Below are positions 8,323 to 18,099 of a stretch of 64,000 nucleotides of DNA, piece by piece. The notes under the pieces are model-generated. The model worked only from the letters and a program-made list of their open reading frames with translations. It ran no database searches and was not told the origin of the DNA. The stretch comes from Patescibacteria group bacterium (GTDB lineage: Bacteria > Patescibacteriota > UBA1384 > 2-12-FULL-50-11): assembly GCA_038058635.1 (NCBI GenBank), contig JBBUAP010000001.1, positions 13,606-77,605 on the forward strand, in the 5' to 3' direction. The position numbers were made by a program, and so were the translations under genes. Position 1 is the first letter of the stretch; each line of letters opens with the position of its first letter.

Positions 8323-8379
8323 TCCTGGATGTCGTGCCTGCGGCACTCGCTCTTCGCTGGCGTTCAGAGTGAGAACCTG

Positions 8380-8453
8380 CGGTCCCAGGGGGATTCGAAC
8401 CCCCGATCTTCAGAATGAGAATCTGATGTCCTAGGCCTCTAGACGATGGGACC
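8380..8453 (-). tRNA. tRNA-Glu (anticodon CUC)
   Basis: GGTCCCATCGTCTAGAGGCCTAGGACATCAGATTCTCATTCTGAAGATCGGGGGTTCGAATCCCCCTGGGACCG. The 7-bp acceptor is perfect. Anticodon loop TTCTCAT with U33 and A37. T-loop TTCGAAT. Confidence 0.85.
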
Positions 8454-14829: not shown

Positions 14830-14959
14830 CATGACGCTAATACGAGGTATTGGTGGTCGTGGTTGTACCGAACAGCCAAAGAAATCAGTGCGTTACCTTC
14901 GGGTAGCGGCACAAACGGGAGGGATGTCACCCGGGAAAGACATCAGGAGCACGTTTACA

Positions 14960-15718
14960 ATGAAAACAACGATATGGTGGGTCGGTCTGACCCTTTTCGT
15001 CCTCGGCACCCTTGGAGCATTTGCCCCTCCGGAGAACTATCCGGGTTGGTGGGCCAAGGCGTGGGGAATGACCTTCCCCTATCAAACGGACGCGACGAAG
15101 ACGCAGTCGCATGATCCGGCCGTCGCCGGCCAGATTTGGACCGGTCGCGGACTCAAGGGAGTTGGCGGGAACACCCGTCTCGAGCTCGAACAGCCGGCGC
15201 TCCGCAAAGAAGCGGCAGCCGGCGACGCAAGGGTCGATGGCAGGGCGCAGCATCGAGTCTATCTCGTCCTCGTGGCGGTGATTGGACTCTTCCTGATGTA
15301 CCTCGGTCTTCGTCAAGAGGATCGTGAGCGTGAGGAAAGACGGTTTGAGCGGCTCGAGGGACAGCTGCCGAACCAAACCACGCCCGACAGCACTAAGACA
15401 TCGGTGCCCTCACAACCGACAGTCTCCCAAGGCAAGAGCACACCTCTCGAGCCGATGAACGACGATCCCGAGCCTAACTGGTGGCAGCTTCTATGGGCGC
15501 CTTGGCGGCGCACTTCACGCGAGCGCCAGTCCGTGATCGCAGCCCCGACAGAGCCGATCGATATCAACATCGTCGTTGAGTCGTTCGACGGAGACAAGTC
15601 GAAAGCACGACATGTGCTGACGGCGAGCTTGCCGGCAATGACCGTTCATTCGGTCAAAGCCCACCTCAGGGTGGGTACCAACGACACCGTCCAGGAGATG
15701 GGTCTCGACGTCCACTAA
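14960..15718 (+). CDS. hypothetical membrane protein, GC-rich (probably foreign)
   Basis: Start at the ATG at 14960 with SD AGGAGC 9 nt upstream, within ORF 14831..15718. Two TM helices. About 62% GC with G/C-ending codons. It is the only plus-strand gene in a minus-strand block. Confidence 0.45.
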   Translation: MKTTIWWVGLTLFVLGTLGAFAPPENYPGWWAKAWGMTFPYQTDATKTQSHDPAVAGQIWTGRGLKGVGGNTRLELEQPALRKEAAAGDARVDGRAQHRVYLVLVAVIGLFLMYLGLRQEDREREERRFERLEGQLPNQTTPDSTKTSVPSQPTVSQGKSTPLEPMNDDPEPNWWQLLWAPWRRTSRERQSVIAAPTEPIDINIVVESFDGDKSKARHVLTASLPAMTVHSVKAHLRVGTNDTVQEMGLDVH

Positions 15719-15736
15719 GACGTCCCCCATCTCCCC

Positions 15737-15770
15737 GAGCGCAGGAATAAACCCCTGCGCTCGTTTTTTA
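15737..15770 (+). terminator. rho-independent terminator
   Basis: gagcgcagg-aataaaccc-cctgcgctc 9-bp stem followed by gtttttta. Confidence 0.6.
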
Positions 15771-15780
15771 TACCTATTTG

Positions 15781-15851
15781 TTCCGGGACTTGGATTCGAA
15801 CCAAGGTTGCCAGGCTCAGAACCTGGAGGCCTACCACTAGCCGATCCCGGA
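15781..15851 (-). tRNA. tRNA-Gln (anticodon CUG)
   Basis: TCCGGGATCGGCTAGTGGTAGGCCTCCAGGTTCTGAGCCTGGCAACCTTGGTTCGAATCCAAGTCCCGGAA. Perfect acceptor. Anticodon loop TTCTGAG. Confidence 0.85.
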
Positions 15852-15854
15852 GTA

Positions 15855-16541
15855 TTAATCCTTCGAGAAAGATATTAATTCAATAAACTTCGCTACCTCC
15901 AACTTTCTTGCTAACCTCACATCTCGATGCCTGAACTGTGGATTGTAACCAAGTCTCAAAAGCGCATTGTAAACATCCTCAAGTAAACTATGGTTGTAGC
16001 TTGTGTATTTTATCACGCAAGTATGATTATTTGAATCAACACAGAGGTTTCCGTCACTCTCAAACATCCCCTTTAGACAACGGACTAGATGCAAATTACT
16101 TCTTTTTATCCACGCGGGTACCCGTAGCTCGTGTCGTATCTTAATACCGGTCGGAAAATCAAGCCTAGACGAAATATGTTTTTGGTATAGATATACATCA
16201 ACACATTTGGAGTCCTTCCGGATCCGGATTGTAGGCTTCTTCTTAAAGATTTCCTCGGTTAACTTCGCTAACCGCCCAATTCTCTTCTGCTCCTTGGAAT
16301 TGAAGCATAGCGTTAGTTTCTCTGTTCTTGGGTATCGCTCGACACAGCCATCCCCTAGAAGTACGCCATAGAATTCGGCAGAATCAGGGCTGCGTTCTAG
16401 TTGTGCATAATATACTGGGTGAGCTACCTCCCATTTTCGAAAATTGCTTTGCATCCTACCCGACATAGTGAGCGACATTTTCATCAGGCTGGGATGATTA
16501 TCTTTAGTGAGACCCTTATTCCAAGGAGTTCTACCTTTCAT
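15855..16541 (-). CDS. LAGLIDADG-family homing endonuclease (double-motif, freestanding)
   Basis: Two LAGLIDADG-type motifs, FYGVLLGDGCV and CLKGMFESDGNL. N-terminal GRTPWNKG. AT-rich relative to its neighbours. It ends 3 nt before tRNA-Gln. Confidence 0.7.
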   Translation of the reverse strand: MKGRTPWNKGLTKDNHPSLMKMSLTMSGRMQSNFRKWEVAHPVYYAQLERSPDSAEFYGVLLGDGCVERYPRTEKLTLCFNSKEQKRIGRLAKLTEEIFKKKPTIRIRKDSKCVDVYLYQKHISSRLDFPTGIKIRHELRVPAWIKRSNLHLVRCLKGMFESDGNLCVDSNNHTCVIKYTSYNHSLLEDVYNALLRLGYNPQFRHRDVRLARKLEVAKFIELISFSKD

Positions 16542-16626
16542 ACTATAAGTATAACCTGATATTTTCCTACCACTAGACGATCACCGGAATTCTTTGAAAT
16601 TCTATCTGAAACAGGTTTGCTAGCCA

Positions 16627-18099
16627 CTACCTAGCTGAAAGTTTCTTGATCGCTGTATTGAGGCGCTTGGTCGACTCTTCCTTACCAATTACAGATAATA
16701 ATTCGAAAGCACCTGGTGAGGCGTCGCGACCAGACAAGGCGACTCGAACAGCCCAGAGCAGTTCGCCGTCCTTAATTTTCAAGTCCTCGGCGGCCCCACG
16801 CAGAGCCGGCTCGACTTCATCAAGTCCCAATGTTTTTAGTTCACTCACGACCTTAACGGCCGATTTCAGGGCGGCCAAAGTATTGGCTTCGGTCGATTTC
16901 TTGGCGACTAATAATGATTGTTCATATTTCGGGCTAATGAAGAAGTAACCAATCTGATCTTCGATTTCACTCAGTAGCTTGAGCCGATCGTGGACCAAAG
17001 CAATCGCATTCAAATAGTAGTCGGGCTCTTCCGTGACGGCTTTTTGCAGTTCATTATTGGTGATGAATTCGCGTCCGGCATCGGCCACTTCACCGATCGA
17101 TTTTTGGCGAAGATAGTAGCCGTTCATCCAAAGCAATTTTTCGGAATCGAAAATAGATGGACTTGTGCCAACTCGGTTGATTTCAAACTCATCGATCAGT
17201 TCCGACATTGAAAATATTTCCCGTTCAGTGCCCGAATTCCAGCCCAAAAGCGCGATGTAATTTACCAGAGCATCTGGCAGAAAGCCCTTGGCTTTATAGT
17301 CGTCCGAGATCGAAACCGGATTTTTGCGCTTGCTCATTTTTGAGCGGTCTTTGTTGAAAATAAGCGGGAAGTGACCGAATTGTGGGCTCAAAAAATTGAG
17401 GGCGTCAGCCAAAAGTATTTGTTTAGCGGTGTTGACTAAATGCTCCTCGCCCCGCAGGACATGGCTAATTTTCATCAGATTATCGTCAATAACATTTGAC
17501 AGGACAAACAGCGGCATACCGTCCGAGCGTTGAATGACGAAATCGCCAAACAAGCCGGCATCAAATTCGACCTTGCCTTTGATTAGATCGTCAAAACTGA
17601 CCTTTTGCGGTTCAACAACAAAACGGACGGCGCTAGAACGATGTTCTCGCTCGAACTGGTCGATCTCTGTGGCCGACAAATGCCGACATCGGCCGGAGTA
17701 TTTTGGGGCGGAGCCCTGGCTCTGCTGGCTCTCCCGTTCGGCCGCTAACTCTTCCGGCGTACAGTAACAACGGTAAGCCAGTTTCTTATCGATGAGTTGC
17801 AACACGAACGGGTCGTAAAGCCCGAGCCGTTCCTTTTGAAAGTACGGCCCGTAAGGCCCGCCGACTTCCGGTCCTTCGTCCCAGTCCATGCCGAGCCACT
17901 TCAACCCGTCGAGGATATCTTTCAGCGATGAGTCGTCGTGTCGTTGTTGATCGGTATCCTCTACTCGCACAACAAACTTACCGCCAAATTTCTTGGCAAA
18001 CAAATAATTGAACAGGGCTGTACGGGCCGTGCCAATATGGAACTTGCCGGTTGGGCTAGGAGCAATCCTTACTCTGATTTCGTCAGCCATTGAATTCAA
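16627..18099 (-). CDS. gltX: glutamyl-tRNA synthetase
   Basis: HIGH as PSPTGKFHIGTART and KMSKS as KMSKRKN. 490 aa. Confidence 0.9.
   Translation of the reverse strand: MNSMADEIRVRIAPSPTGKFHIGTARTALFNYLFAKKFGGKFVVRVEDTDQQRHDDSSLKDILDGLKWLGMDWDEGPEVGGPYGPYFQKERLGLYDPFVLQLIDKKLAYRCYCTPEELAAERESQQSQGSAPKYSGRCRHLSATEIDQFEREHRSSAVRFVVEPQKVSFDDLIKGKVEFDAGLFGDFVIQRSDGMPLFVLSNVIDDNLMKISHVLRGEEHLVNTAKQILLADALNFLSPQFGHFPLIFNKDRSKMSKRKNPVSISDDYKAKGFLPDALVNYIALLGWNSGTEREIFSMSELIDEFEINRVGTSPSIFDSEKLLWMNGYYLRQKSIGEVADAGREFITNNELQKAVTEEPDYYLNAIALVHDRLKLLSEIEDQIGYFFISPKYEQSLLVAKKSTEANTLAALKSAVKVVSELKTLGLDEVEPALRGAAEDLKIKDGELLWAVRVALSGRDASPGAFELLSVIGKEESTKRLNTAIKKLSAR

Follow-up and report, generated by a model that had tools for sequence, protein, structure and literature searches.

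The question raised by this locus is how a homing endonuclease gene can lie almost directly against an intact transfer RNA (tRNA) gene. The 64,000-nt stretch considered here (contig JBBUAP010000001.1 of a Patescibacteria group bacterium from groundwater, called the window below) has on its minus strand, in this order, gltX, an open reading frame (ORF) encoding a LAGLIDADG homing endonuclease of 228 amino acids (aa), and a gene for tRNA-Gln(CTG). The first-pass annotation of the window described the endonuclease gene as wedged between gltX and tRNA-Gln. It overlooked a 24-nt copy of the tRNA 5' end just upstream of the endonuclease; sequence comparison places the insertion inside the tRNA gene itself, in the D-arm at about position 22–25, with the native 5' fragment left upstream. 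The reading proposed is that a tRNA-Gln(CUG) gene was quite probably invaded by a homing-endonuclease cassette, by way of presumed cleavage, and restored by duplication of its 5' part.

The tRNA-Gln locus of the window

Read along the minus strand, the upstream fragment, or relic (TCCGGTGATCGTCTAGTGGTAGGA, 16565..16588, located by direct repeat and alignment), copies the first ~24 nt of the tRNA-Gln gene, comprising the acceptor 5' strand and the D-arm to about position 24, and ends 23 nt upstream of the endonuclease start codon. The intervening 23 nt (16542..16564) are an AT-rich leader forming the left end of the element, with a −10-like hexamer, TATACT, at 16548-16553, 6 nt before the ATG. 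The endonuclease gene follows (15855..16541), with an ATG start, two motifs and an N-terminal PWNKGxTK extension, and a 3-nt spacer, TAC (15852..15854), leads from its stop codon to tRNA position 1. By comparison with loci L112, L167 and L168 and with the relic, the putative replacement for the interrupted tRNA segment is at 15829..15851 (raw positions 1–23, with a G-C D-stem pair, TCGGC...GGC); the rest of the functional tRNA, delimited by comparison with relatives, is at 15780..15828. The tRNA-Gln(CTG) as a whole (15780..15851, minus strand) is complete and canonical, at 57.8 bits with Rfam, and the earlier statement that the endonuclease gene ends 3 nt before an intact tRNA-Gln is correct.

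A repeat finder reports relic and tRNA as a 17-nt direct repeat, identical at 16 of 17 positions and lying 736 nt from the tRNA. The relic's 16-mer, TCGTCTAGTGGTAGGA, is the consensus of the endonuclease family, and is identical at all 16 positions to the tRNA of locus L168, an uninvaded allele which reads TCCGGGATCGTCTAGTGGTAGGATAGCAGAATCTGGATCTGC... Scored the other way, the consensus 16-mer derived from other genomes, TCGTCTARTGGTAGGA, has no mismatches to the relic and two to the functional tRNA of the window; at up to three mismatches, 0.66 matches would be expected by chance in the whole window.

The composition of the endonuclease gene is foreign. Its GC content is 0.421, compared with 0.491 for gltX, 0.597 for the tRNA and 0.498 for the window, and at third codon positions (GC3) it is 0.437 versus 0.552 for gltX, which bears out the first-pass remark that the gene is AT-rich relative to both neighbors. 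That annotation also saw no intron or intein context, and again rightly. A permissive Rfam scan of 15600-16750 (E up to 10) gave the tRNA as its sole match, with no group I or other intron, and the non-coding flanks of the ORF are just 23 nt on the side of the tRNA fragment and 3 nt on the side of the tRNA. No Hint domain was found in the profile scan, and the ORF has its own ATG and stop codon. Nor is this an integrase insertion: the insert contains the LAGLIDADG ORF alone, and the duplicated part of the tRNA is the 5' end, not the 3' end. In the window, no relic of the native tRNA 3' part was found above shuffled background downstream of the functional tRNA.

Linkage to tRNA-Gln across genomes

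Homologues of the window protein were found at 34–54% identity, and linkage is summarized over more than 120 testable loci at 33–54%. In every testable homologous locus the endonuclease gene lies 0–26 nt upstream of tRNA-Gln, regardless of the gene further upstream, and in about nine loci of the family its stop codon is inside the tRNA. In four homologous loci, for example, tRNA-Gln(CTG) begins 6–10 nt past the stop codon in all four, while the upstream genes are an alginate-export gene, T2SSE (twice) and an unknown gene. Overall at least six different upstream genes accompany the homologues linked to tRNA-Gln(CTG): gltX, the alginate-export gene, T2SSE, ftsX, fmt and the unknown gene. What is conserved beside the endonuclease gene is tRNA-Gln, and not its junction with gltX. 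An association specific to gltX can be rejected on these grounds, and the first-pass argument that gltX and tRNA-Gln form a functional pair explains nothing about the position of the insert.

Of 80 metagenome loci, 77 lead on the same strand straight into tRNA-Gln(CTG); the contigs of the other three end within 71 nt of the endonuclease ORF. A scan of genomes, one per species, gave 75 loci; all untruncated ones at 32% identity or more continue into tRNA-Gln, including L110, where the tRNA runs into N-masked sequence. Hosts include many classes of Patescibacteria as well as Omnitrophota, Margulisiibacteriota and WOR-1, with Planctomycetia, Gammaproteobacteria and Chlamydiae added if depositors' bin labels are followed. 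The family core amounts to ~50 clusters at 50% identity, and the nearest relatives of the window endonuclease are in other phyla. As a control, none of 23 distant viral relatives has any tRNA within 2.5 kb. A phage origin was considered and rejected: no relative in the viral collection exceeds 31% identity or lies near a tRNA.

Two groups have other tRNA neighbors. A small Omnitrophota subgroup (L130, L132-L135) with a different, helix-turn-helix (HTH)-like N-terminus is linked to tRNA-Gln(TTG) instead of CTG, and L130 and L132 keep an upstream 5' tRNA fragment with a different type of D-arm (GTGTAATGGTAACA). In L142-L144 (Anaerolineae, 33–38% identity) the gene is 25 nt after tRNA-Phe(GAA) and 7 nt before tRNA-Gly(GCC), and no tRNA fragment was seen.

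Empty and occupied sites in close relatives

Orthologues of the window gltX at 82–93% identity occur in Berkelbacteria-like genomes, and by this gene the window organism is placed among the Berkelbacteria-like Patescibacteria. Two of these relatives, L167 (gltX 90% identical) and L168 (85%), lack the endonuclease gene: ~70 nt past gltX they have an intact tRNA-Gln(CTG). This is the spacing comparison with insert-free relatives that the first-pass annotation proposed. Its description of a selfish insertion at a conserved junction holds up for the insertion, since these two sites are empty, and fails for the junction, given the varied upstream genes.

A third relative, L112 (gltX 87%), is occupied by something else. 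Its spacer, tRNA fragment and first ~22 endonuclease codons are 80–90% identical to those of the window; past that point its endonuclease is only ~30% identical and belongs to another subfamily. In DNA terms, identity between the two falls from 80–90% to 35–50% between ~16470 and 15860 and recovers in the tRNA. In both, the relic begins directly after a conserved spacer motif, AATTTCARAGWAT. In L167 this motif leads into TGCC, matching bases 1–4 of its tRNA-Gln, and the called tRNA comes 32 nt further on. The ~28 unrelated nt which separate this TGCC from the intact tRNA (TGCCGGG..., L167 4513-4534) could be the scar of a lost cassette.

The same contrast is found in a second lineage, where L194, L196 and L197 have fmt and then tRNA-Gln(CTG) without an endonuclease gene. 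The relic of L033 and the intact tRNA of endonuclease-free L197 share their starting base downstream of fmt (CTCAAAACACT|TGCCGGG); in L033 the endonuclease gene and then the tRNA come after the relic. Presence and absence are thus polymorphic in both lineages (empty L167 and L168 versus the occupied window and L112; empty L194, L196 and L197 versus L033), and all five uninvaded alleles carry a single tRNA-Gln(CTG). Elsewhere in the family, endonuclease copies are frameshifted (L136, L138) or truncated at the 5' end (L140, L146). The presence or absence of the gene among relatives, the cassette swap in L112, the nearest relatives in other phyla, the broken copies and the foreign composition together suggest a mobile, selfish element.

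The upstream fragment and leader

Fragments like that of the window are widespread in the family. Ahead of the start codon, 72 of 116 loci have a 16-mer with no more than four mismatches to TCGTCTAATGGTAGGA, compared with six to seven mismatches for the best background match, and 50 of 79 have the exact 9-mer TA[AG]TGGTAG. The relic keeps step with the start codon across endonucleases with short, medium and long N-terminal forms, and its similarity to the tRNA always stops after GGTAG(GA), at about position 22–24. In the 61 loci with a fragment, its median distance from the ATG is 30 nt, and the leader between is AT-rich. A TAnnnT hexamer ends 6 nt before the ATG in 36 of these and 5 nt before it in another seven, with the extended form TGnTAnnnT in 37 of 61. 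This hexamer is plausibly a promoter yielding a leaderless endonuclease message that reads through into the tRNA.

Conservation within the relic is uneven, with 1.0–2.0 bits per position in the D-arm part and less than 0.5 bits in the acceptor part. The conserved D-arm may reflect what the enzyme requires of its target, and the fragment may in addition act as an operator at the promoter of the nuclease gene. Two other roles were considered for it and discarded. As a −35 box, GTAGGA or TAGGAA would fit TTGACA poorly, and the distance to the −10 hexamer is 5–29 nt in some loci. An archaeal-type or split tRNA, with the fragment joined to a downstream 3' half, does not fit a downstream tRNA that is complete and a fragment whose acceptor strand is damaged.

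The replacement copy and D-stem types

The functional tRNAs of the window and L112 differ from that of L168 by a compensated D-stem change, with pair 11-24 going from T-A to G-C (TCGGC...GGCC). The stem is GTC or ATC in the relic and in four of the five uninvaded alleles, and GGC/GCC in the functional copies of the window and L112. Across 63 loci, relic D-stems are GTC in 46 and ATC in six; TGC and GTG stems account for ~25 of the 63 functional copies and for none of the relics. Within a locus, relic and functional copy agree fully in just one of the 63. These comparisons point to a replacement copy that arrived with the element, and its altered D-stem may protect it from cleavage.

Further along the window tRNA, which is mosaic, the anticodon arm differs from those of L168 and L112, consistent with a co-conversion tract, and the T-arm and acceptor 3' strand are identical to those of the relatives. 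Across the family, endonuclease divergence is correlated with that of the tRNA acceptor stem in Mantel tests (r = 0.36 and 0.34, values reached in none of 300 permutations); the same tests gave no correlation with the D-arm or anticodon arm. Such a pattern fits fast turnover of the region that the enzyme presumably reads.

The endonuclease

The description of the gene as a freestanding, double-motif LAGLIDADG gene is sustained by an intact 228-aa ORF, by its motifs and by a model of its fold. Pfam LAGLIDADG_3 matches at 43.5 bits (cut-off 22.5), over the second half of the protein alone; the first half reaches 13.2 bits with LAGLIDADG_2, which is under threshold. Both motifs are present, LLGDG (with D64) and KGMFESDG (with E161 and D163). 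The alignment of 18 homologues shows no variation at D64 or E161, and at position 163 only D or E occurs. An AlphaFold2 model (predicted local distance difference test, pLDDT, 89.6) has two alpha-beta-beta-alpha-beta-beta-alpha halves after an N-terminal extension of ~50 residues. Its top Foldseek matches in the PDB are I-DmoI, PI-PfuI and I-Tsp061I, with probability 1.00, E 3e-7 and template-modeling (TM) scores of 0.54–0.68; WhiA is also among the structural matches. Sequence matches are weak (1dq3 at 8.8e-5, I-DmoI at 4e-3), with 14–21% identity. Neither the profile scan nor the model of the 228-aa protein has a C-terminal HTH domain. By sequence, motifs and modeled fold this is a bona fide monomeric two-motif LAGLIDADG protein, with cleavage activity predicted.

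Long forms of the endonuclease (L024, L040, L050, L081 and others) are extended at the N-terminus by ~68 residues, which contain a CxxC motif and match the ROS/MucR zinc finger weakly (E 0.022). This addition may be an extra DNA-binding module.

A proposed mechanism and its alternatives

In the proposed sequence of events, the enzyme would cut uninvaded tRNA-Gln(CUG) genes around positions 22–25, within a site of ~20 bp that would be centered on the junction and span D-loop to anticodon. Because such a site would reach the anticodon, specificity for one isoacceptor would be explained. The break would be repaired from an invaded allele, the relic providing homology on the left and the 3' part of the tRNA on the right. 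Repair would copy in the short leader with its promoter-like −10 hexamer, the endonuclease gene and a replacement for tRNA positions 1–24. The tRNA would in this way be restored by duplicating the interrupted segment, without RNA or protein splicing, and the compensated D-stem changes of the replacement copy (in the window, those of the anticodon stem as well) would probably prevent renewed cutting. Transcription of the endonuclease gene would begin at or beside its ATG and continue into the tRNA, and the 3' end of the endonuclease message would be set when RNase P cuts at the 5' end of the tRNA.

Several observations sit less easily with this scheme. The −10-like hexamer of the window has no TG extension and was not called in a generic promoter scan. 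About a third of loci have no recognizable relic, among them L013-L015, the closest relatives of the window protein. In L028, L029, L036, L054 and L061 the acceptor strand of the relic mismatches the functional tRNA, which would be unexpected under simple one-step homing. A homology arm of 14–24 nt is short, and the conservation of the relic D-arm could signify a function of its own, as operator or homology arm, beyond that of a mere relic. The correlation between endonuclease and acceptor stem indicates a good deal of vertical inheritance. As for immunity, functional copies of the L012 group retain the consensus D-arm, so that a D-stem change cannot be the sole means of protection, and uninvaded L197 has a TGC D-stem rather than GTC or ATC.

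Vertical inheritance is the core of one alternative, in which the gene encodes a domesticated LAGLIDADG protein, a stable companion of tRNA-Gln(CUG) that might be a regulator of the WhiA type or help to express or process the tRNA. Strict linkage over proteins just 33–54% identical would be natural for such a partner, as would an arrangement that looks co-transcribed, the synteny shared by L006 and L010, the correlation of the endonuclease tree with the acceptor stem, the presence of WhiA among the structural matches, and a relic D-arm kept at a fixed, operator-like distance from the start codon. A domesticated partner would hardly be missing from L167, L168, L194, L196 and L197, however, or be exchanged for a different version at the same site in L112. 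Both catalytic acids are invariant and there is no C-terminal HTH, and the frameshifted and truncated copies, the foreign composition and the nearest relatives in other phyla also weigh against domestication, which is judged quite unlikely. The variable presence within the clade, the conserved catalytic acids and the foreign composition are the reverse of what the first-pass annotation expected of a gene that was not a selfish insert.

The fragment itself could be accounted for differently. Tandem tRNA-Gln genes are common in bacteria, and the fragment might be the decayed first member of an old tandem pair, with an ordinary freestanding gene lying between the two; that it is decayed in many loci would agree. 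This seems very unlikely given that all five uninvaded alleles have one tRNA-Gln(CTG), and that the fragment begins where the single tRNA starts (fmt lineage) or right after the shared spacer motif (gltX lineage). It also always stops after GGTAG(GA), ~30 nt before the ATG, and a locus with a GIY-YIG gene (L195) keeps both halves of a split native tRNA. That same locus has exactly the arrangement expected if the mobile unit were an endonuclease gene plus a complete cargo tRNA-Gln(CUG), the native gene being destroyed and replaced and its 3' part later deleted. There are LAGLIDADG loci in which the functional tRNA departs from the relic in both acceptor strands, and short repeats of the tRNA 3' end are present downstream in L016, L092, L079 and L049. 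In the window, though, the T-arm and acceptor 3' strand are those of the relatives' native allele and just the D-arm to variable loop differs, and no downstream 3' relic is found there; most loci have none either, the median alignment score being no higher than background. A cargo tRNA is consequently unlikely here, and its outcome would in any case merge with that of invasion and 5' duplication once the two 3' copies recombined.

Neighboring features of the window

The gltX gene (glutamyl-tRNA synthetase, 16627..18099, minus strand; Pfam tRNA-synt_1c at 1.1e-95, and Anticodon_2) is neighboring context only and outside the element. Between it and the relic, a −10-like hexamer read from the sequence, TAGAAT (16599..16604, minus strand), lies 10 nt upstream of the tRNA fragment and may be the native tRNA promoter. 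It was not called in the generic promoter scan and has no −35.

On the other side, a plus-strand gene of no clear family (14831-15718, GC 0.59) converges on tRNA-Gln and is terminated by a strong hairpin with a T-run (15736-15763). Neither L167 nor L112 shows synteny with the segment 14831-15763, so variability extends to the sequence immediately 3' of the tRNA. A second endonuclease gene was considered beside the tRNA-Glu(CTC) of the window (8379-8453) and rejected: the 229-aa ORF 138 nt upstream (region to 9280) is a Nudix/NrtR-type regulator.

Related arrangements elsewhere

Other loci have comparable layouts. Distant LAGLIDADG relatives at 23–28% identity (L145-L166) begin 1–15 nt after tRNA-Leu(CAA), and in three of them a 13–20-nt copy of the tRNA 3' end is found past the stop codon (L147 3549-3575, L148 3549-3590, L164 3603-3630), which mirrors the tRNA-Gln design. 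In L195 (1051-1842), a GIY-YIG gene and a whole foreign tRNA-Gln(CTG) split the native tRNA into positions 1–15 and ~18–72, and a second GIY-YIG copy lies ~230 nt downstream of the tRNA. In L046 (1550-1972) a GIY-YIG gene separates the tRNA from a 14-nt repeat of its 3' end. Small genes of this kind (~80 aa) are also found 35–190 nt downstream of tRNA-Gln(CTG) in L033, L085, L063/L065, L062 and L010; the window has none. Finally, GC-rich, hairpin-forming inserts of 55–150 nt directly follow tRNA-Gln(CTG) in L168 (4611-4712), L016/L095, L092, L079 and L049. Each ends in a 16–24-nt direct repeat of the tRNA 3' end, and they may be scars of another insertion in the T-loop or small mobile elements in themselves.

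Such cases suggest that the duplication design extends beyond the LAGLIDADG family of tRNA-Gln(CUG). A broader proposal is offered tentatively, and may well be wrong in its full extent: that in Patescibacteria, Omnitrophota and neighboring phyla there is a general, so far unrecognized, splicing-free way of colonizing essential structural-RNA genes, by duplication instead of splicing, in which the cassette carries an uncuttable replacement segment and the target halves are portable homology arms. It would involve at least two nuclease families (LAGLIDADG and GIY-YIG) and several tRNAs (Gln-CUG, Gln-UUG and, in mirror form, Leu-CAA), in an arms race that would drive the unusual diversity of the tRNA-Gln D-arm and anticodon stem in these lineages.

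Comparison with known systems

In the usual view, homing endonuclease genes survive in essential genes by way of self-splicing introns or inteins, or else lie in intergenic positions. With its more than 100 relatives, this locus would represent a third solution in bacterial chromosomes, in which an interrupted tRNA gene is repaired at the DNA level by an altered duplicate. They would make up a large and phylogenetically wide family of tRNA-gene-specific LAGLIDADG enzymes, whose targets can be read from the relics, so that recognition, immunity and co-conversion could be tested with synthetic substrates. New meganuclease scaffolds would be on offer as well, and "orphan" tRNA fragments and LAGLIDADG ORFs unexplained in the annotation of candidate phyla would be accounted for. 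More generally, the locus suggests a role for selfish nucleases in the diversity of tRNA sequences in reduced genomes. A full-text literature search found no description of tRNA-Gln-linked LAGLIDADG genes or of tRNA targets duplicated at the 5' end.

In structure the window enzyme resembles the archaeal monomeric double-motif enzymes I-DmoI, I-Tsp061I and PI-PfuI, with which it has the fold and two catalytic motifs in common; the N-terminal PWNKG/helical extension is additional. Those enzymes are encoded in rRNA introns or inteins that are spliced out, whereas the window gene is in a bacterial tRNA gene and is neither intron nor intein. Integrase-borne islands and prophages at tRNA genes share with the window element an insertion into the gene and its restoration by a partial copy. 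They have an integrase, duplicate the 3' part and measure kilobases, in contrast to an element of ~0.75 kb without integrase in which the 5' part is duplicated. Endonuclease ORFs in protein genes of fungal mitochondria, such as atp6 of Allomyces, reportedly bring with them a duplicate gene end (Paquin et al., 1994). There too, a copy of the displaced segment is reported to keep the gene intact while the native piece remains as a relic; the target in those cases is an organellar protein gene, its duplicated part is the 3' end and the ORF is joined to it in frame, compared with the 5' end of a bacterial chromosomal tRNA here.

Group I introns with an endonuclease gene likewise interrupt bacterial tRNA genes, in the anticodon loop (33/34 to 36/37) of tRNA-Asn, Asp, Arg, fMet and Leu, and those in tRNA-Asn and tRNA-Asp genes are known from Patescibacteria (PMC13011429). 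The same source makes no mention of tRNA-Gln or of freestanding LAGLIDADG genes. The window element differs from these introns in having no ribozyme, in interrupting the D-arm and in restoration by duplication. Patescibacteria also have LAGLIDADG genes in rRNA insertions, such as I-ShaI, many of them in group I or II introns and mostly single-domain (PMC11270868). Host phylum, structural-RNA targets and site-specific families spread across distant hosts are as for the window family; those insertions are removed from the RNA, unlike the window element, and tRNA is absent from that account (PMC11270868).

The closest functional analogue is SegB of phage T4, a freestanding GIY-YIG endonuclease whose 27-bp site takes in a tRNA stem-loop motif that is conserved; in several tRNA genes the enzyme recognizes the T-psi-C arm (PMC2330249). 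No split target or duplicated tRNA segment is described for it (PMC2330249), and it is phage-borne and of another nuclease family. Like the window enzyme it is freestanding, and it drives the inheritance of itself together with flanking tRNA genes (PMC2330249).

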